From IMG/VR virus record IMGVR_UViG_3300022916_000637: 33,570 bases of DNA; one strand, given 5' to 3'. The stretch is from a virus. Below, in pieces: positions 1,750-25,821 of the stretch (position 1 is its first letter; every line of letters starts with the position of its first letter). The position numbers and the translations under genes were made by a program. Below the pieces are notes generated by a model, which saw only the letters and a program-made list of their open reading frames with translations, made no database searches and was not told where the DNA came from.

Positions 1750-2058
1750 ATGACAGCTAAAAAAGAAAGTAAAAGTAATACAGATCTGGTAAAAAATAAA
1801 GATCAATTAAAATCGTCAGCAGAGAAAACATTAGATTTTCTAACAAACATTGTTGATTTAAGTTCTAGTACTGCGGAATATACTCTAAAAAGATTAACTC
1901 CAGTTATTAGTCAAACAGTTATTGAAGAAGAACTTAAAGGTATAAACACATCTGAATTTCCGCCTCTTTTTCAAGATATATATTCCCTAGTTAGTAAAAT
2001 CGAAAAAAATCTTTATGAAATACAAAACACTCTATCAAGAGTCGAGGTTAATTACTAA
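1750..2058 (+). CDS. Hypothetical protein
   Basis: ORF track 1735-2058; ATG 1750 preferred because GGAGG lies at 1737-1741; TAATG overlap with queC. Confidence 0.7.
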   Translation: MTAKKESKSNTDLVKNKDQLKSSAEKTLDFLTNIVDLSSSTAEYTLKRLTPVISQTVIEEELKGINTSEFPPLFQDIYSLVSKIEKNLYEIQNTLSRVEVNY

Positions 2059-2729
2059 TGTCAGATAGTTTTGTAGTAGCTTTATCGGGAGGATTAGATA
2101 GTACTACACTTTTAGCCATTTTATTCGATCAATCATTTCATCAATCAGACAGTATTAGATGTGTCGGATTTGAATATGGATCTAAACATAATAAATATGA
2201 AATTGAAAGTGCAAAAAAAATTGCTAAACATTATGATGTAGAATACAGTTTAATAGATTTAAGAAATGTTGGAAAATTACTTAAATCTAATTTACTATTG
2301 TCTGGTGGTGAAATACCTGAAGGACATTATAATGATGCAACAATGTCACAAACAGTAGTACCTGGTAGAAATTTAATGTTTGCTAGTATTTTAGCCGGTT
2401 ATGCTGAAAGTATTGGATTTAATAGAATTGCATTAGGTGTTCATAAGGGAGATCATGAGATCTATCCAGATTGTCGTAAGGAATTTGTAAAAGCACTAGA
2501 TTCTTGTATCTACTTGTCAACTGATAAAAGTGTTGAAGTTTACACACCATTAATTGATATGGATAAAATTGAGATTGTTCAAGAAGGTCTTGATTTGGAA
2601 GTTCCATATCATCTTACACGTACATGTTACAAAGATCAAGAAAGATCTTGTGGTGTTTGTGGATCATGTGTTGAGCGTCTTGAAGCATTTAAATTAAATA
2701 ATGTTAAAGATCCAATTGAATATGAATAA
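2058..2729 (+). CDS. queC: 7-cyano-7-deazaguanine (preQ0) synthase QueC
   Basis: SGGLDS PP-loop, VPGRN, YPDCR and C-terminal Zn site TCY-x6-CGVCGSC-ERLEAF, all typical of QueC. Confidence 0.95.
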   Translation: MSDSFVVALSGGLDSTTLLAILFDQSFHQSDSIRCVGFEYGSKHNKYEIESAKKIAKHYDVEYSLIDLRNVGKLLKSNLLLSGGEIPEGHYNDATMSQTVVPGRNLMFASILAGYAESIGFNRIALGVHKGDHEIYPDCRKEFVKALDSCIYLSTDKSVEVYTPLIDMDKIEIVQEGLDLEVPYHLTRTCYKDQERSCGVCGSCVERLEAFKLNNVKDPIEYE

Positions 2730-2744
2730 AAACAGGAGTATAAA

Positions 2745-3179
2745 TTGTACGAAATTGAAAAGAAATTTACATTTGAAGCAGCACATGTATTAAAAGGATT
2801 AGGAGAAAACCATCCATGCTCAACTATACATGGTCATTCATATAAATTATATGTTAAAATTTCTAGTGAAGAATTAGATCGAAATGGTTTCATAATTGAT
2901 TTTGGAGAATTAAAAACATTTCAAAAAGAATTAATTGATTCATTTATTGATCACTCTGTAATCATTACTAGAGATACTGTTATTGATGTTAATTGTTCTA
3001 AAGTATATATTATGCCAAAAGAATATACTAACACAACTGTCGAGAACATGTGTAAACACTTTCTAGATCTATTATTAGAATTTTTTAAAGATATAAAATT
3101 TGATAATTTTTATAAAATTCGTATAAAGATGTTTGAGACTGAAAATAATAGTGGGTCTTATACATACATTAAAAACTAG
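2745..3179 (+). CDS. queD: 6-carboxy-5,6,7,8-tetrahydropterin synthase QueD
   Basis: F-EAAH-L, C-x3-HGHSY, IDFG-LK, DH and T-VEN motifs; TTG start after AGGAG; adjacent to queC. Confidence 0.92.
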   Translation: MYEIEKKFTFEAAHVLKGLGENHPCSTIHGHSYKLYVKISSEELDRNGFIIDFGELKTFQKELIDSFIDHSVIITRDTVIDVNCSKVYIMPKEYTNTTVENMCKHFLDLLLEFFKDIKFDNFYKIRIKMFETENNSGSYTYIKN

Positions 3180-3186
3180 TAATATT

Positions 3187-3223
3187 AACTCCCGGAAGGT
3201 CATTAGATCTTCTGGGAGTTTTT
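3187..3223 (+). terminator. Intrinsic terminator after queC-queD
   Basis: AACTCCCGGAAG ... CTTCTGGGAGTT stem (one G-U pair) followed by Ts. Confidence 0.75.
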
Positions 3224-3231
3224 AACAATTA

Positions 3232-3432
3232 ATGGAGACAAAAATTATGATAACTGCATCATGTTTTACAAATATAGAAGAATATGAATTATTAGAGTGG
3301 CCTGAAGTTTTTGTAAATGTACCAAAAATAGGAACTTTAGTGAAATCAAAAAATGGAAACTTTTTAGAAGTTGGTCAATTGACTTACGATTTTGACGGGA
3401 AACTTTGGATTGAATTACGAGAGATAAAGTAA
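3232..3432 (+). CDS. Hypothetical protein (66 aa)
   Basis: ORF track; stop overlaps the next start (TAATG). Confidence 0.6.
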   Translation: METKIMITASCFTNIEEYELLEWPEVFVNVPKIGTLVKSKNGNFLEVGQLTYDFDGKLWIELREIK

Positions 3433-3602
3433 TGAAATTTAAAGATTTAAAAAAAATTATTGTTTTTAATGATGATTTTGGTATTAAAGATAGAAAAGAC
3501 ATTCAAAATATATTAATTGAATTAGAATCAATAACTGATGAGTGTAAACATGAACAGTTTCTTGAAGTTGATGACTTTGGAGATATTCATTTGAGGGATT
3601 GA
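3432..3602 (+). CDS. Hypothetical protein (56 aa), paralog of 3732-3941
   Basis: Manual translation MKFKDLKKIIVFNDDFGIKDRKDIQNILIELESITDECKHEQFLEVDDFGDIHLRD; shares IL-x2-L-x-SIT-x-EC...LE...I-x-L-x-D with the downstream ORF. Confidence 0.65.
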   Translation: MKFKDLKKIIVFNDDFGIKDRKDIQNILIELESITDECKHEQFLEVDDFGDIHLRD

Positions 3603-3612
3603 TAAATCTTAA

Positions 3613-3674
3613 AATTACTCCCATTATATTTTGGGGGTAATTCATATTTTTTCGTTTTATATATAGAAATAATA
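3613..3674 (+). promoter_or_regulatory. Terminator hairpin + TATAGAAATAATA putative promoter, copy 1
   Basis: Stem AATTACTCCCA/TGGGGGTAATT (3613-3642), T-rich spacer, TATAGAAATAATA at 3662-3674; the same unit recurs five times between genes. Confidence 0.7.
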
Positions 3675-3695
3675 TAGTAAAGTCTTTTTTATATT

Positions 3696-3719
3696 TCTAA
3701 AACGTAGGGCGCGATCTAG
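3696..3719 (+). promoter_or_regulatory. TCTAAAACGT-N6-(A/C)GATCT leader motif, copy 1
   Basis: TCTAAAACGTAGGGCGCGATCTAG directly before the RBS/ATG of 3732; matches copies at 19527, 19729 and 19935. Confidence 0.6.
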
Positions 3720-3731
3720 GAGGAAAAACAA

Positions 3732-3941
3732 ATGCAATTCGAAAAACTTAAGGAAACTGTTTTATTTAAAGATGCTGAAACTAGTATAAAAATGAAAATA
3801 TATGAAATCAGAGGTATTTTAAAAGATTTAACATCAATAACTAATGAATGTGAAAATGATGAAGCATATCTTGAATTCACACAAAATGAACAAATCGAAT
3901 TGTGTGATTTTAATGATTCTTCTAATTCCATTTGTATTTAG
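3732..3941 (+). CDS. Hypothetical protein (69 aa), paralog of 3432-3602
   Basis: AGGAGG RBS; similarity to the upstream 56-aa ORF. Confidence 0.7.
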   Translation: MQFEKLKETVLFKDAETSIKMKIYEIRGILKDLTSITNECENDEAYLEFTQNEQIELCDFNDSSNSICI

Positions 3942-3958
3942 GAGAGGAGATTAATCAA

Positions 3959-4270
3959 ATGACTCCGAATGTTAAGTGCCCTAATTGTGGTAAAGTAGGA
4001 TGTGTACAAATATCAGGATTCGCTAGTGAATTGGCAACCAGAGAAAAGTACTGTAGGTTCTGTAATGAAAAATTTTATGTTCATATAATTACAGCTACTT
4101 CAAAAGAAAAAGAAATACGTGATGGTAAAGTTAGTGAACTTAAAGAAAAAATAATAAGATTGTCTAAGAAAAGAAAAAAGATTTATAAAGAATTATTTAT
4201 TATGTGTGAAGGAAATATGAGTCTTATAGAAAAAGCTTCGCGAATAATTGGATATGCACAAGGAGAATGA
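3959..4270 (+). CDS. Zn-ribbon protein
   Basis: CPNC ... CRFC pairs; ATG 3959 follows GGAGAGGAG (track start 3932). Confidence 0.7.
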   Translation: MTPNVKCPNCGKVGCVQISGFASELATREKYCRFCNEKFYVHIITATSKEKEIRDGKVSELKEKIIRLSKKRKKIYKELFIMCEGNMSLIEKASRIIGYAQGE

Positions 4271-4271
4271 T

Positions 4272-4652
4272 ATGGATTTTGAAAAAAATATGAATATTCT
4301 CAAAAAGAACATGTATATTAAAGATGATACAAATGAAAAAGATTTAATAATTCTTGCAATGCCGGATATGATATTGTATGGTTTTGTTCATGAAATAATA
4401 AGAGATCAAGCTGTAAAGACTGGTACTTGGTGGCATGTAACATTTACAATACTATCTGTACCTTTACTTACTACTACATTAATCATGAGAACAGAACAAA
4501 TGACTGGTCAAGAAACATTCACTGTTAATGGTGAAGATAGATTTTTTGCTGCTCTTGATACTGATAAATTACATCAAGAGAAAATACCTTTAAAAGAAAA
4601 ACCTAAAGCTAAAACTGTTAAAAAGAATCCATTTACTCTAGTTAAAAAATAA
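4272..4652 (+). CDS. Hypothetical protein
   Basis: Track ORF 4248-4652; ATG 4272 follows AGGAG at 4261-4265. Confidence 0.7.
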   Translation: MDFEKNMNILKKNMYIKDDTNEKDLIILAMPDMILYGFVHEIIRDQAVKTGTWWHVTFTILSVPLLTTTLIMRTEQMTGQETFTVNGEDRFFAALDTDKLHQEKIPLKEKPKAKTVKKNPFTLVKK

Positions 4653-4661
4653 GGAGAAATA

Positions 4662-4925
4662 ATGGAAAAATTAGCCAGTGCAATAAAATTGGCAGTAAAA
4701 TTAAGAGAAGACTCTTTTGATCATAAACTAGCGCAATCTAAAGGACCTGGTTATGATTTTAGTAAATGTTATAAACTAACATTAAGAGAAGCATCAGACA
4801 AGGCAGCTACATTTGTATCTGTTGGGTTTGATACTAAAGGAATAAATCCTATATATTTACTTCTTAGAAGTTATTTGAATGAATCTTTAGATTGGGCTGA
4901 TAAATTTGAAGAAGAAAAATCATGA
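4662..4925 (+). CDS. Hypothetical protein (87 aa)
   Basis: AAGGAG RBS; ORF track. Confidence 0.7.
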   Translation: MEKLASAIKLAVKLREDSFDHKLAQSKGPGYDFSKCYKLTLREASDKAATFVSVGFDTKGINPIYLLLRSYLNESLDWADKFEEEKS

Positions 4926-5232
4926 AATGTTTGAAAAAATCAGTTTTATTTTAGGAGAATTAAAAATGGAAGAAAGATTACCACATAATTTTATTACTAA
5001 TTACAAACAGTGGTTAGAATATCAAGAAATTGTGAAATTTGATAATGACGAATTTCATTTAGTTCAAGAGATTCTTTCCCTACAAATAGCTCTTTATCTA
5101 TTAAGAAGAACAAATATAGTTGATAGTTCTCATATAGATTGTTTTTATAAAATAATATTTGAAAAGAAAACAGAATATTCAAGAATAATGGAGAAAAACT
5201 ATATTGATGTTAATGAAACTATTGATTTTTAA
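4906..5232 (+). CDS. Hypothetical protein (true start possibly ATG 4927)
   Basis: ORF track; fills the gap in the + strand gene run. Confidence 0.6.
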   Translation: MKKKNHEMFEKISFILGELKMEERLPHNFITNYKQWLEYQEIVKFDNDEFHLVQEILSLQIALYLLRRTNIVDSSHIDCFYKIIFEKKTEYSRIMEKNYIDVNETIDF

Positions 5233-5258
5233 AATTAACCTTACAGGAGGAATAAATA

Positions 5259-5456
5259 ATGGAACAAACTCAATATAACGGAATTGAAAGAGAGCTTGAA
5301 GGAATAAATAATAAATTAAGCATTTTGATATCTTTACTAAAACCTTTAAAGAACATATCAGAAGATATTGAAATGTCTAAAGTATCACTCAGTAAAATGC
5401 TCAAGAAAGATAACTCGCCGTCTATTCATGTACCACAACCTAAAGTAATGTCATGA
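5259..5456 (+). CDS. Hypothetical protein (65 aa)
   Basis: AGGAGG RBS; ATGA overlap with the next gene. Confidence 0.65.
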   Translation: MEQTQYNGIERELEGINNKLSILISLLKPLKNISEDIEMSKVSLSKMLKKDNSPSIHVPQPKVMS

Positions 5457-6010
5457 AAACGATAAAATTAGATGGTAAAACTAAAGATCAAATAGCAAAT
5501 GTGATGCTTCAGTGTGGTACACCTAAACAACAGAAAGAATCTATTGAATATTGTACAATAAAAACTATTAATAATTATATCAAAATGAAACCTCAGATAA
5601 ATGTTGAAGGTTCTTTAAAAGATGATATTATAGATCTTGAGAAACTAGATATAGAAGATGGTACTATTATTATTTTAAAGGTTGATAGTGAAACCTATAA
5701 ATTTAAAGATCAAATATCTAAAAAATTAAGAATGATTTTAAAAGAATTAAGAAAGAAAATCTTCTTCTTTATTCTTAATCCAAATCAAGAAATATCAACA
5801 CTGAATCAAGAAGAAATGGAAAAATTTGGATGGATTCGTAAAGAAAAAGCAATTAGTGATTTTCGATTTCTATTATCTCTTATGCCTGAATGGACTAAAA
5901 TTGTACCTAGAAATTTAGATCCCACTTTTTATACAACTCTTACATACGAAGGTGATTTAGCAATAAAAGAAAGAGTTGATAAAATAAGAGAATTTGTGAA
6001 AGGTGATTAA
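5453..6010 (+). CDS. Hypothetical protein (185 aa)
   Basis: ORF track; coupled to both neighbours. Confidence 0.7.
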   Translation: MKTIKLDGKTKDQIANVMLQCGTPKQQKESIEYCTIKTINNYIKMKPQINVEGSLKDDIIDLEKLDIEDGTIIILKVDSETYKFKDQISKKLRMILKELRKKIFFFILNPNQEISTLNQEEMEKFGWIRKEKAISDFRFLLSLMPEWTKIVPRNLDPTFYTTLTYEGDLAIKERVDKIREFVKGD

Positions 6011-6547
6011 ATGATTAAAGATGGATATATAAATATACCTAAAGGATATTTCTGGTGCGACGAATGTCAAGCTCTTACTCCACATGATCAAGAAAAATCT
6101 CCTGAATATTCCTGGCAAGAAGATTATTATTATTGCAAAATTTGTGACAGTCAGATAGATTTTAATAATGATACTAATTGCCCTAAATGTGGATGGAATT
6201 ATTTACCATATTATGAATCTGTACCGAAACAAGATATTCAAGCACATCAACCAGGATGTCACTATATGGAGAATAGTATTGATGCTGAAGATATATGTTA
6301 TTCTCTTGGATACTCACATGCTGAAAATGTGTGGGATGAATTCATTAGAAGGAATTTTCAATTTAGAAATATAAAAGAGATAAAATGTTCTTGTCTAACA
6401 TATGAAATAATTACAGATCCCTATTGTTATGCCAGTACTGGAGGATATGGATCTGGAATGGAGTGTTATAATGATACTTGGTGGCATTTAGATATTCGTT
6501 GTCCAATTTGTGGTGAAAGATTTGAAATTGATGATAGTAGTTGTTAG
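6011..6547 (+). CDS. Cys-rich multi-Zn-finger protein
   Basis: CDEC, CKIC, CPKC, CSC and CPIC motifs in 178 aa. Confidence 0.7.
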   Translation: MIKDGYINIPKGYFWCDECQALTPHDQEKSPEYSWQEDYYYCKICDSQIDFNNDTNCPKCGWNYLPYYESVPKQDIQAHQPGCHYMENSIDAEDICYSLGYSHAENVWDEFIRRNFQFRNIKEIKCSCLTYEIITDPYCYASTGGYGSGMECYNDTWWHLDIRCPICGERFEIDDSSC

Positions 6548-12483: not shown

Positions 12484-15400
12484 ATGACTATTTTTAGAGC
12501 TTTCGGAAGACACATTGATAAAATTAAACCTGTAGATATAAAAATAGATCAAAATGAAGATTTTGAAATAATCACACAGAGGAACCAACAAAGAGAAGTT
12601 TTTGAAGAAAATCGAAATTCAAAATATTTTCAACTGATACAACCACCTGGATCAGGTAAATCTATTAATGTTGCTTTTGTTATGGCTGATAGATTGAAAA
12701 ATAATCCAAACATGAAAGTTGTTATAGCTGTACCTCAAACATTTATTGCAAAATCTTTTGGAAAAATGATTCTTCAATATGATGATGGTACACAAATTAA
12801 TTGGGATTGTTTTCATGATCTTTGCAAGAAATCTAACCTTCAAAAAATCAAATACTTAACTAAATTTCTTAAAAAGAAAGAATTTGAACCTGGTATTGAA
12901 AATCGTGTGGCTATTGTTACACATTCTACTTTAGCTCAAACATATTCAAAAGTATCAAAATTTAATGATATATTTGATAATACTACAATCGTAATTGATG
13001 AAGCTCATCATATAATGTATGAGGATAATGAAACATCAAATAGAATTGGAAGTATGGTCAATCATATTTTTAAAAATAAATCTGATAGTTCTCTTTGGTT
13101 AGTAACAGCTACACCATATCGTGGTGATAGTAATTCTATTATACCTAAAGAAATTCTAGATACATTTGATAAGCATTTTCTTCCTCTAGATAAACATTGG
13201 GAAGAAAATATTAAGTATATTGAAGATTTTACTTTTAATTTTGTTATATACAAACAATATGAAATATTTGATGAAGTTAAGAAAGTATTTAAATTAGGAC
13301 ACAAAAAGAGCATAATTTTCTGTCCTTATGTTGGTCATCTTATGAATGATAGTAATAAGAATAAATTTAAAGATAAACTTATTAAAACTATCAAAGAAGA
13401 GTGGCATGATTGTAAAATTCTTGATCTTATTGAAACCAACGGTAGAGATAAGAGAAAAGAAATACTCCTTGATAATAGAGATGCTAAACATGTTGATGTG
13501 ATACTAACTCTTAAAATATTTGATGAAGGATCAGATTGGGTTCATGCAGAACAATGTCTTGATTTAGCACCTTCAAATACTTTAAGAATAACACATCAAC
13601 GTTTCGGTAGATTGTGGAGAGATTTCTTTAATAAGAAATCAATAATATATTACTGTTTTCTTCCTTTTGAAAGTAAATTTAAAAACGAAGAAGAAAGGCG
13701 AATACATTTAAGTAAAAGTTTCAATGCTCTAGCAACATCTTTATTGTTACAAGACATTATTGAACCAATTAAATACCCAACAAAATTAAAATCAAATAAT
13801 AGAAGAGAGTTATATATTAATCCTCTAGAGGAAATATTTCCAGATGATGATGAAAGAGCAAAATTATTGGAGAACATAATTAAAAAACTAATAGTTATGA
13901 AATCTGTTTCAGAAGATCCATCTGCTCAAGATGTTAAACAATGGATCAAATGTTTATTAACATCAGAGAACATAATTAAAAATCAAGACCAAATCATTAA
14001 TCACATCGGTTTAGTTTTTAGAAAAATGCACAATCAAAAACATATTATTAAATCAATTGATTATTCTAAAAATAATTCAAATTATTTTATCGAAGATTTT
14101 GATAAAATTTGGTTGAATGACATCTTTGAAGATTTAAGAATTTTTGGAACTAATACATGTACATCAAAAACATTTCAAGAATTTAGAGATGTTATTAAGG
14201 GAGAAAGAAAATCTATAGAAGAATGGGTACAAATAGCTGAGAAATTAACTGAAGAAAATGGTGGAAAATTACCACCATCTAAATGGTTAAGAGAGAATGG
14301 GTATAATGGATTAGAAATTTGTTTGTATAAATATAAAAATTCATTTAAACATATTCTTAAAGAAAATTTATATAAAGAAAGAAATTCACCAGAGGATTGG
14401 GTTAAAATTGCAGAGAAGTTAGCTAAAGATAATGGTGGAAAATTACAATCATATATTTGGTTAAAAAGAAATGGTTATATGGGGTTAACTGCTCTCTTGT
14501 ATAGTAAACATAAGAAAATGTTTGATCATATTAAAAGAAAATATGATTCTATGCCTCCAGAAAAATGGCTTAAAATAGCCGAGAATCTAGTTAAAGACAA
14601 TGGTGGAAAATTGCCACCAGCTACATGGTTGATAGAAAATGGGTATTCAAATTTACTTTACCATTTAAACAAAAAATCATTTTCACATATTGATAGAGAT
14701 TTTATTAATGATCCGTGTAAATCTCTGGATGAATGGATCGAAATAGCCGAGAAGTTAGCTAAAGACAATGGTGGAAAATTACCACCAGTTAAATGGTTAA
14801 GAAAGAATGGGTACGGAAGATTAGTAAACCATCTTTGTATAAACAAAAAATCATTTTCACATATTGATAGAGATTTTATTAATGATCCGTGTAAATCTCT
14901 GGATGAATGGATCGAAATAGCCGAGAAGTTAGCTAAAGACAATGGTGGAAAATTACCATCACTTAGTTGGTTGAAAACAAATGGTTATCGTAAGTTATAT
15001 CAATGTATAATATCAAATAGAGATACATTTTCTCATATTAAAAGAAATGATAATAATCTTAAATCTCTGGATGAATGGATCGAAATAGCCGAGAAGTTAG
15101 CTAAAGACAATGGTGGAAAATTGCCACCAGCTAAATGGTTAAAAACAAATGGTTATAATACATTAATTCGTATTATATACGCAAATAAAAAATCATTCAA
15201 ACATATTAAAAGAGATTATTGTCACAAACCTTCAGATGAATGGATCGAAATAGCCGAGAAGTTAGCTAAAGACAATGGTGGAAAATTACCACCAGCTAAA
15301 TGGTTAAGAGAGAATGGACACAAAAGATTAGTAGTTTATCTTTCTTTAAACAAAAAATCATTTTCACATATTGATAGAGATTTTATGGTTAATCCTAGTA

Positions 15401-15555
15401 AATCTTTTGAGGATTGGTTAGAAATAGCAGAGATTCTTGCTAAAGACAATGGTGGAAAATTACCACCAGCTACATGGTTAAAAAAGAATGGATATTATGG
15501 ATTAGTCAATCGAATATACAAAAAGAAAGAATTATTTCAACATATCCTTAGATAA
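12484..15555 (+). CDS. SF2 (DEAH) helicase/ATPase with eight C-terminal tandem repeats
   Basis: Motif I QPPGSGKS, II VIDEAHH, III VTATP, V FDEGSD, VI QRFGR; C-terminal ~450 aa is 8 copies of W-x2-IAE-x-L-x3-NGGKL-x4-WL-x2-NG[YH]. Confidence 0.85.
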   Translation: MTIFRAFGRHIDKIKPVDIKIDQNEDFEIITQRNQQREVFEENRNSKYFQLIQPPGSGKSINVAFVMADRLKNNPNMKVVIAVPQTFIAKSFGKMILQYDDGTQINWDCFHDLCKKSNLQKIKYLTKFLKKKEFEPGIENRVAIVTHSTLAQTYSKVSKFNDIFDNTTIVIDEAHHIMYEDNETSNRIGSMVNHIFKNKSDSSLWLVTATPYRGDSNSIIPKEILDTFDKHFLPLDKHWEENIKYIEDFTFNFVIYKQYEIFDEVKKVFKLGHKKSIIFCPYVGHLMNDSNKNKFKDKLIKTIKEEWHDCKILDLIETNGRDKRKEILLDNRDAKHVDVILTLKIFDEGSDWVHAEQCLDLAPSNTLRITHQRFGRLWRDFFNKKSIIYYCFLPFESKFKNEEERRIHLSKSFNALATSLLLQDIIEPIKYPTKLKSNNRRELYINPLEEIFPDDDERAKLLENIIKKLIVMKSVSEDPSAQDVKQWIKCLLTSENIIKNQDQIINHIGLVFRKMHNQKHIIKSIDYSKNNSNYFIEDFDKIWLNDIFEDLRIFGTNTCTSKTFQEFRDVIKGERKSIEEWVQIAEKLTEENGGKLPPSKWLRENGYNGLEICLYKYKNSFKHILKENLYKERNSPEDWVKIAEKLAKDNGGKLQSYIWLKRNGYMGLTALLYSKHKKMFDHIKRKYDSMPPEKWLKIAENLVKDNGGKLPPATWLIENGYSNLLYHLNKKSFSHIDRDFINDPCKSLDEWIEIAEKLAKDNGGKLPPVKWLRKNGYGRLVNHLCINKKSFSHIDRDFINDPCKSLDEWIEIAEKLAKDNGGKLPSLSWLKTNGYRKLYQCIISNRDTFSHIKRNDNNLKSLDEWIEIAEKLAKDNGGKLPPAKWLKTNGYNTLIRIIYANKKSFKHIKRDYCHKPSDEWIEIAEKLAKDNGGKLPPAKWLRENGHKRLVVYLSLNKKSFSHIDRDFMVNPSKSFEDWLEIAEILAKDNGGKLPPATWLKKNGYYGLVNRIYKKKELFQHILR
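14209..15552 (+). repeat. Eight tandem ~165-177-nt (~55-59 aa) in-frame repeats
   Basis: NGGKL occurs 8 times; 14666-14784 and 14840-14958 are identical over 119 nt. Confidence 0.92.
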
Positions 15556-15576: not shown

Positions 15577-16299
15577 ATGCGCAATACACAACCTAATTAT
15601 GTACATAGTAGTCCTTGGGATGATGATATAAAAGTGGAAGCTAGATATAAAACGATAATTAAAATATATCGTAAAGTATTTAGAAGGTTATCAATTCCTG
15701 AAAACTCAGAGTATTGGACAATGTGTGGAGCGCATTATACTCGAACTTCTTCTATAGTGGGTGAATTAGGGCATTTGGTTAATTCCAACCTAATTCACCC
15801 AGATCAATTCTACGGAGTTGATCGAGAAGAAAAAGTGATTAAAACTAATGCGAAATATTATCCACACATTAAATGGATTCATGGAGATTTCCTTGAAACT
15901 ATTTGCGAAAGAATAATAGGCAAACAATTCAACCCATCAATTATTAATTATGATGGTGTAATGCAACCAAAATATGGATCTGATTATCTTAAGAAAATTA
16001 TGAAAACTATAGATAATGGAGTTAAAAACGAATTACTACTTATTAGTAATTTTGTATTAAAAAATCCATATATTTTTTCAGAAAAATCAGAGTTTCAAAT
16101 AAGTGATATATTCGACATATTATTAAAAGAATATTGGATACCAGATCATTGGTCTATATACCCACAAGGGTATCCTTATAAACATGGTAAAACTCAAATG
16201 GGTACAGTTATCTTTATAAAGAAACCACATGATCCATTAAATATAACTTATACTAAAGGGAGAAATCTCTTGTGGAAGGAAAAATCAAATGCCAAATAG
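15577..16299 (+). CDS. Putative class I SAM-dependent methyltransferase-fold protein
   Basis: Order of Rossmann-like elements YWTMCG ... FYGVDRE ... WIHGDFL ... IINYDG; no canonical DNA-MTase DPPY motif seen. Confidence 0.4.
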   Translation: MRNTQPNYVHSSPWDDDIKVEARYKTIIKIYRKVFRRLSIPENSEYWTMCGAHYTRTSSIVGELGHLVNSNLIHPDQFYGVDREEKVIKTNAKYYPHIKWIHGDFLETICERIIGKQFNPSIINYDGVMQPKYGSDYLKKIMKTIDNGVKNELLLISNFVLKNPYIFSEKSEFQISDIFDILLKEYWIPDHWSIYPQGYPYKHGKTQMGTVIFIKKPHDPLNITYTKGRNLLWKEKSNAK

Positions 16300-17032
16300 A
16301 GTGATATATGAACCAAAAGGTTCTGCTAAAGAATATGCAGATCTTGCGCTCAATCTTTATATAGGTTGTAATCATGGTTGTAAGTACTGCTTTGTCCCTG
16401 GTGTTTGTAAAATCACTAGAGAAAATTTTAACGGAACAATTAAACCAAAAAAGGATATTATTACGAGATTAATAAGAGACTTAGAATTGATTGAAAAGAA
16501 TGATGAATTCGAAAAATCTCAAGTTCTTATGTCATTCACTAGTGATCCTTATCAACCACTAGAGGAAGAACTAAAACTAACACGAACATCAATTAAATTA
16601 TTAAATTCGTTTGATTTTCCTGTTCGAATACTTACAAAAGGAGAAGATTTAGCTCAAAGAGATTTTGATCTTTTGTCTCAAGTTCAAGAAAACGAATTCG
16701 GTATTACTTTAGTTATGTTAAATGAAGATTTACAAAAAGAATGGGAACCATTTGCAGCTTCCCCCAAACAAAGGATTGAAAATCTAAGAAGAGCCAAAAA
16801 AAGAAACATTAAAACTTGGTTAAGTTTAGAGCCAATTATTGATCTTCAAGAAGCATTAGATGTTATCGATAATACTCATGAATTCACAGATTTTTATGGT
16901 GTTGGTAAATTGAATTATAACAAACACCAAAAAACAATAAACTGGAAAGAAGTCAAAGAGAAGGTTGAGAAAAAATTGAATCATTATGGTAAAAAGTATA
17001 TGATTCATAAATCATTAGAGGAGGCCCAATGA
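16289..17032 (+). CDS. Radical SAM protein (SplB/photolyase-like, Rv2578c-like branch)
   Basis: LNLYIGCNHGCKYC = CxxxCxxC; SF-x-SDPYQP, ILTK and SLEP elements typical of that branch. Confidence 0.85.
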   Translation: MPNRVIYEPKGSAKEYADLALNLYIGCNHGCKYCFVPGVCKITRENFNGTIKPKKDIITRLIRDLELIEKNDEFEKSQVLMSFTSDPYQPLEEELKLTRTSIKLLNSFDFPVRILTKGEDLAQRDFDLLSQVQENEFGITLVMLNEDLQKEWEPFAASPKQRIENLRRAKKRNIKTWLSLEPIIDLQEALDVIDNTHEFTDFYGVGKLNYNKHQKTINWKEVKEKVEKKLNHYGKKYMIHKSLEEAQ

Positions 17033-17241
17033 AAGAATTAGACATTGAAGAAAATGAAGAAAGCGAAATTAGAATTGGGGATTTTGTAATTAATTTATCT
17101 CTAACTCCTGAAAAGGATCTTATGGCATCTTTTGCTAGAAATCAAGATCCAAGTGAAGACAATCCAGATAGTCCAGAAAGTCCAAATGGTGCTTTTGAAG
17201 ATTTTGTGTTTTCAAGAAAAAATATTCATGATTACGAATAA
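17029..17241 (+). CDS. Small acidic protein (70 aa)
   Basis: GAGGAGG RBS; ATGA overlap with the radical SAM gene. Confidence 0.65.
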   Translation: MKELDIEENEESEIRIGDFVINLSLTPEKDLMASFARNQDPSEDNPDSPESPNGAFEDFVFSRKNIHDYE

Positions 17242-17908: not shown

Positions 17909-17978
17909 TCTTCTAACATAATTCCACCTCCGGTTGAGGATGTGGATTATTTAATATGAGAAAAGATTGGAGATAAAA

Positions 17979-18533
17979 ATGTATGACAATACAAAACCAT
18001 ACTATAATCAAATGGGATATGGTAATGATGTACTAGAACGATTTTGGTCAAAAGTGAATGTAAAGAAACTTGATGATGGATCTGATGATTTAGATTCTTG
18101 TATGGAATGGATTGGTGCTAAAAGTGGACACGGATCTGGTTACGGTCGTTTTAGTATTAAATATGACCAATTTGGAACTCATAGATTTATATATGAATGT
18201 TTTAATGGTCCAATTCCAGAAGGTTTACAAGTTCTTCATAGTTGTGACAATCCATCTTGTGTTAATCCTAAACATTTATGGGTAGGAACTATTCAAGATA
18301 ATTTAAAAGATCAAAAAAATAAAAATCGACAAAATAAAGGAAGTGATATTACAAACTCTATATTAATAGAAGATGAGGTTTTAGAAATAATAGAGTTATT
18401 AAATATTGGTGTTTCACACAATAATATTGCTAAAAAATTTAAAGTATCAGGAGTATCAATAACTAATATTAATACAGGAAGAACTTGGTCACATTTAACT
18501 GGAAGAAAATATAGGAGAAAAGATGTTAGATAA
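17979..18533 (+). mobile_element. Free-standing HNH homing endonuclease with C-terminal HTH
   Basis: RFWSKV, C-x-EW, GYG-x-F, HR-x2-Y, VLHSCDNPSCVNPKHL-x3-T-x2-DN; C-terminal HNNIAKKFKVSGVSI helix-turn-helix; ATG 17979 after GGAG. Confidence 0.85.
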
Positions 18534-25278: not shown

Positions 25279-25821
25279 ATGGCAATGGCAACCAGACCCT
25301 CATTTATGCCCAAAATTAAGCCCGTAGTCGAAGCAGCCCCCGCAGCCCCCGCAGAAGCAGCTCCTGTTGCAGCTCCCGTTGCAGCCCCAGCCGCTCCCGC
25401 AGTTGAAGCAGCTCCCGTTGCAGCCCCAGTGGCCGCTCCTGTTGCAGCTCCCGTAGTTGATGCTGTACCTGCTGCTCCGGTTGAAGTGAAGAAAGCACGA
25501 AAGAAACCAAACCGTCAGATGACTCCGGAAGATACGGAATTTGTTGTGGCAAATGTCAAGAATATGTCATATACGGAAATTGCCGAAGCTCGTGGTATTA
25601 CAAAACATCAGGTGAATCGTGTACTGATGGAAACAAAAAAACAGTTGAGAGAAGCATGTGGTGATGATGCTGCTAGTTTAGCAACTGTTGATGCTTATAT
25701 CACTGAACATCTATCTCGTCCCGAAGATACTCGTCCCGGTGGCGGTGCTGGACGAGCATCAGTTGTGAAGGCGTCAATCAATGATATCGTTGGTAATATC
25801 CTGAATGGTCTTGGTAGTTAA
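25279..25821 (+). CDS. Ala/Pro-repeat protein with a putative helix-turn-helix
   Basis: N-terminal (A)APV/APA repeats, then MTPEDTEFVV...MSYTEIAEARGITKHQVNRVL; AAGGAG RBS; followed by a terminator. Confidence 0.65.
   Translation: MAMATRPSFMPKIKPVVEAAPAAPAEAAPVAAPVAAPAAPAVEAAPVAAPVAAPVAAPVVDAVPAAPVEVKKARKKPNRQMTPEDTEFVVANVKNMSYTEIAEARGITKHQVNRVLMETKKQLREACGDDAASLATVDAYITEHLSRPEDTRPGGGAGRASVVKASINDIVGNILNGLGS
25333..25482 (+). repeat. Imperfect in-frame GC-rich tandem repeats (GCAGCTCCCGTT-like units)
   Basis: GCAGC(T/C)CC(C/T)G(T/C)N units encoding AAPV/AAPA; about two-thirds GC in an AT-rich window. Confidence 0.8.

Follow-up and report, generated by a model that had tools for sequence, protein, structure and literature searches.

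SF2 motors that carry strings of small modules of DNA-binding type are known in outline; the HA-domain helicases, Lhr, and RadD-like proteins are examples. Strings of small modules are found on other proteins as well. SelB carries four consecutive winged-helix (WH) domains of about 60 amino acids (aa) that bind SECIS RNA, and the repeats of TALE, PPR, and PUF proteins stack into a continuous solenoid in which each repeat corresponds to one base. For the HA domain, the title of the paper reporting the NMR structure, as cited in PMC12191111, states that the domain binds DNA. Lhr is an SF2 helicase with a C-terminal extension of five WH modules (PMC8053096), and these modules nucleate an oligomeric (tetrameric) state (PMC8053096, PMC9841417).

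Here we describe a viral gene for an SF2 helicase with a repeat array at its C-terminal end. The window, i.e., the whole stretch of DNA that we analyzed, is 33,570 nucleotides (nt) long (IMG/VR record IMGVR_UViG_3300022916_000637), and all features discussed below are on its forward strand. Like Lhr, which has a gene for a DNA repair enzyme as its operon neighbor, the protein is an SF2 helicase with a C-terminal series of (predicted) WH-like modules. The modules of Lhr are diverged and nonrepetitive in sequence, whereas those described here are clear sequence repeats, 3 to 13 units per protein, with basic linkers, and the two proteins do not resemble each other in sequence.

The helicase and its partner gene

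The helicase gene (P0001) occupies positions 12484 to 15555, stop codon included. Its exact 1023-aa product is recorded on 11 public contigs. By its sequence the protein is an SF2 helicase or translocase of the DEAD/DEAH, ResIII type. The core (12586 to 13620) consists of RecA-like domain 1 (DEAD/ResIII; residues 35 to 211/213) and domain 2 (Helicase_C; residues 270 to 379). All Pfam scores were over the cut-offs (DEAD, 40 bits versus 26; ResIII, 37.7 versus 22.5; Helicase_C, 24.6 versus 23.5). Helicase motifs I (PPGSGKS), II (DEAHH), III (TATP), and VI (QRFGRLWR) are present, and residues G58, K59, D172, E173, Q372, R376, and R379 are invariant in an alignment of 26 full-length relatives. The top match in the defense library was PbeA (E value, 6e-13). 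A sequence search for a relative with a solved structure found none, nor did Pfam and defense-library searches find a nuclease domain. Between the motor and the array lies a family-specific connector (13621 to 14214; residues about 380 to 577), which is conserved in the relatives' alignments, matches no Pfam family, and ends in a conserved FGT..C...TF.EFR motif.

The rest of the protein is an array of eight tandem repeats (14215 to 15552; residues 578 to 1023), each delimited by an NGGKL anchor. Repeats 1 to 4 are at 14215 to 14388, 14389 to 14556, 14557 to 14724, and 14725 to 14898, and repeats 5 to 8 are at 14899 to 15066, 15067 to 15231, 15232 to 15405, and 15406 to 15552; their lengths are 58, 56, 56, 58, 56, 55, 58, and 49 aa. 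TRF gave the array a score of 917 with a period of 174 nt, which is one 58-aa unit. A preliminary description of this DNA had reported eight repeats of ∼57 aa on an SF2 helicase, and the Pfam core, the anchored units, and TRF all agree with that reading.

Immediately downstream is a gene (15577 to 16299) for a 240-aa protein predicted, from structure-model matches, to have a class I SAM-methyltransferase fold (the Atlas model has TM values of 0.54 to 0.69 to Methyltransf_11/25 clusters). It matches no Pfam, PHROG, NCBIfam, or PADLOC family. In 10 of the 11 loci with downstream DNA, the array is immediately followed by a homolog that is 32 to 50% identical, and all of these homologs are single-domain proteins of 197 to 240 aa. 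The phage Tunturi_5 has a split version of the helicase with no adjoining partner gene. The partner gene is probably translationally coupled to the helicase gene. Its product has no target-recognition domain and lacks the (D/N/S)PP(Y/F) motif of DNA amino-methyltransferases; the invariant motif is N-x-D.

Methylase-helicase dyads (phage P1 DarB type) and Type III Res/Mod systems also link an SF2 motor to a SAM-methyltransferase-fold protein; here the link is an almost invariant pair of adjacent genes. A dyad of the DarB type was rejected, as motif IV is N-x-D, not of the DPPY type, and of 50,697 phage records searched by tblastn with the helicase, only two matched, neither being P1.

The third gene (16289 to 17032), which shares 11 nt with the partner gene, encodes a PA0069/Rv2578c-type radical SAM protein (Pfam Radical_SAM E value, 1.5e-13; NCBIfam rSAM_PA0069 E value, 3.9e-27, which is below the cut-off). 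This family presumably groups with SplB-like DNA repair enzymes. Apart from the window's phage, only contig L002 has the radical SAM gene, at the same position. A gene for a 70-aa acidic protein with no Pfam family match (17029 to 17241) closes the four-gene run, and the same gene order, including this last gene, is found in contigs L014 to L018. The surrounding genes in the window make up a module for DNA replication and repair, with a primase, topoisomerase II, a clamp loader, and XPB-like and UvrD-like helicases.

Relationships and predicted fold of the repeats

The repeat family comprises 605 sequence clusters with arrays of 3 to 13 units, always C-terminal on this helicase. The family is mostly viral, with one Planctomycete MAG, and has no curated entry. 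All of the roughly 40 full-length relatives have a motor of about 560 to 640 aa followed by 3 to 12 repeats at the extreme C-terminal end. The family signature is EEWV.IAE.LA..NGG.LP...WL..NGY..L.......P..F.HI., with a conserved core at W4, V5, A8, L11, L19, W24, L25, L33, M37, F44, and I47 (743 family repeats). The free positions in these repeats are 21 to 23, 26, 27, 31, 34, 35, and 38.

HA helicases are similar in having an SF2 (ResIII plus Helicase_C) motor and then, at the C-terminal end, tandem helical units of about 55 to 70 aa, and true HA arrays also consist of units that are nearly identical within one protein. However, the HA unit is about 69 aa long versus 55 to 58 aa for this repeat, and the HA signature, LG.W...QR...L..LGF.W, is lacking here. 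The suggestion that the repeats are HA domains (PF03457) failed at the sequence level. Neither single repeats nor the array gave an HMM match to PF03457 at an E value of ≤10 (the Pfam cut-off is 28.4 bits), and PF03457 was absent from the 25 families with the most matches among 72 relatives (E value, ≤0.1). In the Planctomycete genome, PF03457 matches at an E value of ≤10 lie elsewhere, and none is on the array copy. When a profile of 743 repeats was compared with 13 true HA units by hhalign, the probability of homology was 1% (E value, 0.057; 32 columns), the HA alignment used being shallow (Neff about 3). Structural searches gave some HA matches. The solved HA domain 2kta, the NMR structure from Bacteroides vulgatus BVU_0683, was at rank 11 in a PDB-wide search (Z, 3.2; rmsd, 6.0; 57 residues aligned). 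In the viral structure library (BFVD), 7 of the 15 top matches to the array model were SF2-helicase or "helicase associated domain" proteins, and HA-annotated viral proteins were enriched among the matches (E values, 1e-3 to 0.1).

The only hints of a relationship at the sequence level come from HNH_repeat (PF18780) and Tyr_recomb_halo_N (PF26683). The comparison of true HNH_repeat units with the repeat profile gave an hhalign probability of 14% (P = 0.002) with 49 of 55 columns collinear, and HNH_repeat has a similar length (about 54 aa) and a similar start (helix, G, then P). The HMM scan of the repeats, the array, and the relatives listed no match to PF18780. Precomputed matches to PF26683 on most relatives were "faint." A protein-atlas search named both families as leads (0.76 to 0.82), with PF18780 at 0.76 to 0.77. 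The hosts of these domains differ from ours: they are HNH nucleases and recombinases, not helicases.

AlphaFold2 modeled the array with a pLDDT of 88.8 and a pTM of 0.56, and a two-repeat model had a pLDDT of 92.7. Each repeat was modeled as an α1-β-α2-turn-α3-β fold. DSSP of both models gave H(13)-bridge-H(6)-H(9)-short H-bridge with no hairpin wing. In the array model the linkers had pLDDT values of 65 to 80, below those of the repeats; together with the pTM, this suggests beads on a string. Foldseek found no match in the PDB. PDB-wide structural matches to a single repeat were weak (Z, 2.7 to 3.6), but almost all were WH domains, including EF-Sec WH, TtgV, Z-alpha, LexA, MarR, MCM, and Rpa2 WH. 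The best was to the C-terminal tandem WH of SelB/EF-Sec (4zu9; Z, 3.6; rmsd, 2.6; 50 residues), a nonsignificant match tied with many other WH domains. SelB has no sequence relation to the repeats and differs in being a GTPase, not a helicase, and the repeats lack its β-hairpin wing. At low resolution, then, the models place the repeats in a WH-like fold class, with structural matches that are below significance (Z, ≤3.6).

In these models the variable positions map to an exposed, basic α2/α3 face. Across the 743 family repeats, the free positions on α3 are spaced i/i+3/i+4/i+7, opposite L33/A36/M37, and coincide with canonical helix-turn-helix (HTH) contact positions. The models thus support the proposal that the variable residues lie, in a basic segment, on the exposed face of a helix equivalent to the (winged) HTH recognition helix. 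The charge of the repeats is polar. Mean net charges over the 743 repeats are −1.5 for helix 1, +2.5 for β1-α2-α3, and +0.8 for the tail segment (positions 41 to 56, including the linker); the corresponding values for this protein are −2.6, +3.6, and +1.75, and the pI of its array is 9.5.

Sequence history of the array

Helix 1 of repeats 4 to 7 is identical at the DNA level, and the dS of the scaffold is 0.11. In contrast, the helix 2-helix 3 (H2-H3) segment is anciently diverged, with a dS of 0.91, even at invariant residues. Thus, the scaffold has been homogenized by conversion, and the helix has not been hypermutated. A match between 14666 to 14784 and 14840 to 14958, pointed out in the preliminary description, is an exact duplicate (119 of 119 nt) with no extension on either side. 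The first copy covers the end of repeat 3, the linker, and helix 1 of repeat 4, and the second covers the end of repeat 4, the linker, and helix 1 of repeat 5; we interpret the duplicate as a conversion or duplication tract. A sequence also said to recur in repeats 4 to 7 is a 50-mer with four exact copies (14731, 14905, 15073, and 15238).

Within this protein, identity between repeats was 0.72 at the family-variable positions of the scaffold versus 0.21 at the helix positions. The corresponding values family-wide were 0.41 and 0.21, so that homogenization of the scaffold, evident at the DNA level in this array, is supported statistically across the family. In the 28 pairs of repeats from one and the same protein whose scaffold positions were ≥90% identical, identity at the helix positions was just 38%. 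The α2/α3 face differs as much among the repeats of one protein as it does among unrelated proteins.

The eight variable segments are as first listed and differ in every copy. The amphipathic pattern proposed for them, x2-L-x3-(I/L), holds in that L33 never varies and position 37 is either L or I in every repeat, but positions 36 and 37, which had been counted as variable, belong to the hydrophobic core; the truly free positions are those listed above for the family and, in addition, 39. The term "hypervariable," if it means fast evolving, does not apply. The H2-H3 segments are old, and in six contigs that represent the same phage population in other samples, every helix is unchanged, with 0 single nucleotide polymorphisms (SNPs). 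No new helix sequence was found anywhere in the population contigs examined. At the free sites of the H2-H3 segments, pN was about equal to pS, and consequently there is no signal of positive selection. Nor is selection needed to explain the mosaic, because divergence itself can block conversion.

The same-population contigs differ by whole units only. Repeat 4, 5, or 6 is lost, and in one variant a second copy of repeat 4 is in place of repeat 5; the rest of the helicase core has 0 SNPs. The variants break exactly within tracts of about 57 to 119 identical nt; in the repeat 4 deletion variant (P0171), for example, the junction is within the tract from 14840 to 14958. The contigs with unit variants are all low-coverage (4 to 13×) SPAdes or MEGAHIT short-read assemblies. 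Such assembly could fake whole-unit gains and losses, identical tracts being the classic spot for repeat collapse. Of the proposed "repeat shuffling," therefore, the whole-unit losses and the one duplication were seen, but only in assemblies of this kind and with breaks at collapse-prone tracts.

The array was also considered, and rejected, as the target of a diversity-generating retroelement: six independent contigs carry the same variable segments, the differences between repeats span all base types and synonymous sites, and there was no reverse transcriptase among the window's ORFs that were scanned (part of the total).

Possible roles of the tail

On balance, we lean toward the tail being a multivalent nucleic acid-binding tether for the SF2 motor and its methyltransferase-like partner. 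Its target would most likely be DNA, rather than RNA. We infer both the binding of nucleic acid by the tail and a complex with the partner. The gene would then encode an accessory SF2 (DEAH/ResIII-type) translocase or helicase of an uncultured, low-GC, T4-like marine phage. The eight mini-WH-like modules of the tail would fold independently, with short basic linkers between them, and would act with the methyltransferase-fold protein of the next gene to hold the motor on its substrate or to load it there. The basic α2-turn-α3 face and the basic linkers would make the contact, and the constant frame would consist of the acidic helix 1 and the small β-bridge. Because all eight contact faces are old and no two are alike, the modules would not be interchangeable.

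A counterpoint is that WH modules can also be pure protein-protein glue, as in the nucleation of the tetramer by the five modules of the Lhr C-terminal domain (PMC8053096). The tail could be a scaffold whose WH modules oligomerize the helicase, or dock several copies of the partner or phage or host proteins, with no nucleic acid contact. The tight linkage and probable translational coupling of the partner gene suggest a complex, and the protein-binding WH domains of ScpB, ESCRT-II, Rpa2 WH, and UFL1 are among the weak structural matches. In addition, the exposed α3 residues of this protein are fairly hydrophobic (V, I, Y, and L) and would fit protein contacts as well as base contacts. However, a conserved partner should keep its docking surface conserved, yet the α2/α3 face differs between repeats. 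Repeat number varies from 3 to 13 across relatives, whereas the partner is a single domain, and the strong basic/acidic polarity and the basic linkers are typical of nucleic acid binders. We judge a pure scaffold to be unlikely, if worth keeping in mind.

The preliminary description favored a programmable reader, in which each module reads its own few bases via helix 3 and recombination at the scaffolds retargets the motor. The array does share with TALE, zinc-finger, PPR, and PUF proteins its tandem modules, a near-constant, here near-identical, frame, and few free surface positions, which would be those of specificity. The decoupling of scaffold and contact face, here and family-wide, the long retention of the H2-H3 segments despite conversion next to them, the coincidence of the free positions with HTH contacts, and the whole-unit differences among contigs all agree with such a reader. 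Furthermore, an array frame that is identical at the DNA level favors unequal recombination. However, TALE, PPR, and PUF repeats form solenoids, whereas the models of this array, with their weak linkers and a pTM of 0.56, suggest separate small domains and predict no regular solenoid (Foldseek PPR matches, with TM values of 0.09 to 0.13, are meaningless). The population data also argue against a reader of this type: helices were not renewed, positive selection was not detected, 11 contigs carry the array in its eight-unit form, and both the unit variants and the mosaic have the other explanations given above. We consider the programmable reader improbable. The same low standing applies to the broader idea of a naturally re-assortable DNA-reading array with DNA-identical scaffolds as built-in recombination sites to add, drop, and reorder modules and thereby redirect the motor and its methyltransferase-like partner.

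It is also doubtful, to a similar degree, that the array recognizes not a sequence but a state of the DNA (a fork, the Z-form, or a modification such as 7-deazaguanine) and couples the motor and the SAM enzymes to modification or repair. In favor of this role, the structural matches tied at the top include Z-alpha domains, queC and queD are in the window, methyltransferase-fold and radical SAM genes follow the helicase gene, and Mom-like and ThyX genes are near two relatives. Against it, the match to Z-alpha falls short of significance (Z, 3.4), neither the deazaguanine genes nor the radical SAM gene is conserved beside relatives, and the partner has the invariant N-x-D in place of a (D/N/S)PP(Y/F) motif.

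An easy misannotation is corrected by these results: the repeats are not Pfam HA domains. Despite its 605 sequence clusters, the repeat has had no curated family, and the same is true of its near-obligatory partner. Within one gene, the array presents an unusually clean case of concerted evolution that halts at a functional boundary, with a dS of 0.11 on one side and of 0.91, in the putative contact helices, on the other. If the re-assortable reader were true, the array would be a phage-borne analogue of zinc-finger and TALE arrays made from HTH modules, and if the modules are sequence specific, they would offer the design of DNA binders a compact HTH-based unit of about 56 aa. Should the tail bind DNA, the helicase and its partner, which at least one bacterial genome also has, would constitute a new system in which large phages combine a motor with a SAM enzyme, and the pair could bear on DNA modification or antirestriction.

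The repeat array and its family

P0001, the SF2 helicase encoded at 12484-15555 (+) in our ORF list and translation (1023 aa), carries its motor in the N-terminal half, where Pfam DEAD (residues 35-211), ResIII, and Helicase_C (residues 270-379) all score above their cutoffs. Across 26 full-length relatives there is no variation in the residues of Walker A, DEAH, and motif VI. Eight tandem units span residues 578-1023; they are 58, 56, 56, 58, 56, 55, 58, and 49 aa long, and the array has a TRF score of 917. The preliminary description had reported eight tandem repeats, 119-nt identical tracts, and a recurring 50-mer, and this observation proved accurate when checked by TRF, unit delimitation, and tract comparison: tracts 14666-14784 and 14840-14958 are identical over 119 nt, and there are four copies of the 50-mer, one in each of repeats 4-7. 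The feature is real, but the interpretation placed on it was supported only in part. Numbered within the unit, the residues constant in P0001 are W4, I7, A8, E9, L11, N15, G16, G17, K18, L19, W24, L25, N28, G29, L33, F44, H46, and I47.

A profile built from the eight units, scored against 1.84 billion representative proteins, matched 605 clusters (E ≤ 1e-3; 186 when the limit is E ≤ 1e-30), each with 3 to 13 units. The ~40 full-length members are all laid out alike, with ~560 to 640 aa of motor and then the array up to the last residues. The relatives are found on large-phage contigs (IMG/VR, 52 to 286 kb). A cultured relative is Tunturiibacter phage Tunturi_5 (309 kb), in which the annotation divides the homologue (L001 2088-5871; PP885688.1 75742-79525) into three neighboring ORFs named "DNA helicase," with the motor in gp100, five repeats in gp99, and three in gp98. 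The division may be genuine, may reflect read-through or a frameshift, or may stem from a sequencing error. The Tunturi_5 record has 12 places matching the query. There is also a bacterial copy, in a Planctomycetaceae metagenome-assembled genome (L022 1767-6717, on a contig of 815 kb), where a motor (3073-4827) and an array in a different frame (4824-6122) are followed by the partner gene discussed below. An ECF-type sigma-like ORF (1767-2747) lies just upstream of this cassette; at L004, the locus of another relative, a sigma-70 gene lies two genes upstream of the helicase.

When genome contigs were searched with a degenerate DNA version of the repeat, one bacterial copy proved genuine and two other matches were due to chance. 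There was no match in a scan of genome contigs with helicase patterns, in a megablast search of phage genomes with the P0001 gene, or in a related-locus search of IMG/VR with P0001 as the single query protein. Proteins of 200 to 720 aa consisting of an array only were rejected as stand-alone arrays; because the two that were checked both begin at the ends of short contigs, such short proteins are probably fragments. Nothing meaningful came from PDB sequence searches in which the queries were the motor core, a profile of the repeat, and a family profile two repeats long. In a defense library the nearest model to P0001 was PbeA (E = 6e-13), and matches to DpdE were faint; this likeness is resemblance rather than membership. 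A literature search covering PF26683, tandem winged-helix phage helicases, the Tunturi phage, and a jumbo-phage survey (PMC7824862) turned up no account of the repeat.

Constant scaffolds and old contact segments

Position statistics were calculated from 743 repeats of the family. The hydrophobic core consists of W4, V5, A8, L11, A12, L19, W24, L25, L33, M37, F44, and I47, and the conserved turn and cap residues are E9, N15, G16, G17, P20, N28, G29, Y30, P41, H46, and Q49. Entropy is highest at positions 6, 10, 18, 21 to 23, 26, 27, 31, 34 to 36, and 38. We compared pairs of repeats from one protein with pairs from different proteins. At positions that vary across the family, helix 1 and the tail have a within-protein identity excess of +0.15 to +0.25; at positions 21 to 23, 26, 31, 34, 35, and 39 the excess is almost nil (+0.01 to +0.07). 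Identity at family-variable positions is 0.41 within and 0.25 between proteins for the scaffold, versus 0.21 and 0.15 for the helix. Even in the 28 within-protein pairs whose scaffold positions are at least 90% identical, the helix positions are just 38% identical. Thus, the constant scaffold with a differing helix, as originally noticed, is a property of the whole family, and P0001, at 0.72 for the scaffold versus 0.21 for the helix, is an extreme case.

Codon alignment of repeats 4-7 shows that helix 1 is the same letter for letter, save one synonymous change, whereas the contact segment (helix 2-helix 3, or a2-a3) differs even at synonymous sites of unvarying residues. The G29 codons, for example, are GGG, GGT, GGT, and GGA, and those of L25, Y30, and L37 likewise differ. 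Nei-Gojobori estimates for these repeats were a dS of 0.11 and a dN of 0.016 for the scaffold, versus 0.91 and 0.47 for a2-a3, with a pS of 0.67 at the unvarying residues of the segment. The scaffolds were therefore recently homogenized, via gene conversion or unequal exchange, and the contact segments diverged long ago. This old divergence excludes a recent duplication followed by rapid mutation of helix 3. A diversity-generating retroelement or hypermutation is ruled out by the codon alignment, the dS estimates, and the unchanged helices of the population contigs described below. The helix, called "hypervariable" in the preliminary description, is not so in the sense of fast change.

No signal of positive selection on helix 3 could be demonstrated by the Nei-Gojobori method in repeats 4-7, because the free sites of a2-a3 are saturated (pN ~ pS, ~0.5) and because the databases contain no orthologues of 50 to 90% identity. 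The eight different faces may be kept by selection; alternatively, the conversion tracts may be stopped by divergence itself. Helix-by-helix positional comparison with relatives at 40 to 46% identity gave two vague resemblances (NGHKRL and NGYSN), insufficient for orthology. Concerted evolution of helicase tails is not peculiar to this family, since genuine HA-domain helicases of a Planctomycetota genome, G187 (L025, L031, and L033), also have near-identical tandem units within one protein.

In the 90% cluster of P0001, the eight-unit form is present on 11 contigs; other forms are without repeat 4, 5, or 6, and one has a second copy of repeat 4 replacing repeat 5. Among six contigs compared there were no differences over 1731 nt of motor and 0 to 1 differences per repeat; whole units were the sole changes, with junctions inside identical tracts. 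All the variant contigs are SPAdes or MEGAHIT assemblies, the SPAdes ones at 4 to 13x coverage. A loop skipped in a de Bruijn graph yields exactly such whole-unit products. Assembly artifact is the more probable source of these variants, and real unequal exchange the less probable one; whichever is correct, the helix sequences on the six contigs are unchanged.

Predicted fold and relation to known domains

AlphaFold2 models made with family alignments had a pLDDT of 88.8 and a pTM of 0.56 for the array and 92.7 and 0.69 for repeats 4-5. Confidence is lower in the linkers, so the array is modeled as beads on a string. Each unit is predicted to be a helix of 13 residues, a β-bridge at K18-L19, a helix of 6, an N-G-Y turn, a helix of 9, a short helix, and a β-bridge after H46-I47. 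A buried variable segment would have spoken against the preliminary reading. The free positions 31, 34, 35, and 38 of helix 3 are not buried, lying on the face opposite the conserved L33, A36, and M37; positions 36 and 37 are core. Mean net charge per repeat in the family is -1.5 for helix 1, +2.5 for b1-a2-a3, and +0.8 for the tail segment (positions 41 to 56, with linker); the P0001 values are -2.6, +3.6, and +1.75, and its array has a pI of 9.5.

Foldseek found no match to either model in the PDB, PPR and TPR rows being at a TM of ~0.1. Matches in a VIA-align search of the PDB were weak throughout (best Z, 3.6), and nearly all were winged-helix domains (EF-Sec, TtgV, Z-alpha, LexA, MarR, MCM, Rpa2, and ScpB); the solved HA domain, 2kta, was a weak match at rank 11 (Z, 3.2). 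In a viral model library, SF2 helicases or HA-annotated proteins made up 7 of the 15 top matches (E = 1e-3 to 0.1). The repeats had been likened to the HA domain (PF03457), but there is no HMM match, and when the family profile was compared by hhalign with genuine HA units taken from genomes of Planctomycetota, the probability was 1%. HA helicases share the architecture of P0001, and perhaps a related fold, but its repeat is not a member.

The same profile aligned with HNH_repeat (PF18780) over 49 collinear columns (hhalign probability 14%, P = 0.002). A protein atlas offered PF18780 and PF26683 as leads only, and PF26683, which in the homologue table had looked like a name for the family, is actually Tyr_recomb_halo_N, with faint matches only. 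Matches to Pfam APP_Cu_bd, Knl-2-like, AbiEi_3_N, DUF2188, and Pam3 gp33/gp59 were weak ones summed across repeats; few or no individual stretches pass alone, and they were rejected as repetition artifacts.

The partner gene and the role of the tail

Directly behind the array, at 15577-16299 (+), is a partner gene that occupies the same place in 10 of the 11 distinct loci having downstream sequence: the window, L002 (8929-9624), L003 (8039-8695), L004 (7729-8364), L005 (7599-8294; the same as L008), L006, L007, L022 (6124-6717), L051, and L052. The sole exception, with no partner behind the array, is Tunturi_5. The proteins are 197 to 240 aa long, with 32 to 50% identity among the five aligned, and belong to no family in Pfam, PHROG, NCBIfam, or PADLOC. 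An Atlas model of the partner aligns with class I SAM methyltransferases (TM, 0.54 to 0.69). The conserved motifs YWTMCG, GV[DE], HGDF, and N-x-D (strictly unvarying as YW..G, GV[DE],.GDF, and N-x-D) fit a Rossmann SAM fold and are not those of a DPPY-type DNA amino-methyltransferase, N-x-D standing in the place of DPPY. Together, the proteins make up an uncharacterized viral family with a predicted class I methyltransferase fold. Overlapping the partner gene by 11 nt is a radical SAM gene (16289-17032, +) whose product is of the PA0069/Rv2578c type, a type related to SplB-like DNA-repair enzymes; the gene follows the partner in the window and L002 only and is not conserved in the other relatives.

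The window is AT rich (GC, 0.26 to 0.32) and includes a phage DNA-metabolism block of primase, topoisomerase II subunits, clamp loader, and HNH endonuclease, as well as XPB-like and UvrD/PcrA-like helicases, QueC, and QueD. The adjacent genes for QueC, above the TIGR00364 cutoff, and QueD, just under the TIGR03367 cutoff (2058-3179, +), hint at 7-deazaguanine chemistry. The HNH endonuclease gene (17967-18533, +; PHROG E = 1e-29 to 1e-31) looks like that of a free-standing homing endonuclease; it is inserted immediately before the clamp-loader gene, which it overlaps by 11 nt. A 180-aa ORF (25279-25821, +) contains a 12/24/39-nt tandem repeat (25342-25454) that encodes an Ala-Pro-Val-rich low-complexity stretch and coincides with a local GC spike (0.42 versus ~0.28).

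The likeliest reading, which we consider slightly more probable than not, is that the tail serves as a multivalent tether to nucleic acid for a motor working with the methyltransferase-fold protein. The array would hold the motor to nucleic acid, probably DNA, and the motor would act together with the partner. It is rather unlikely that the array is instead a protein scaffold or oligomerizer, for which Lhr-CTD is a precedent, its five winged-helix modules nucleating an oligomer (PMC8053096). There is little chance that the array reads a state or modification of DNA, and a programmable sequence reader, as proposed in the preliminary description, is just as improbable.

P0001 belongs to a recognized type, that of SF2 helicases whose tandem tails are of DNA-binding type. 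What sets it apart is an uncurated repeat family, an uncharacterized partner gene that is near-obligatory, and the sharp boundary at which conversion stops.
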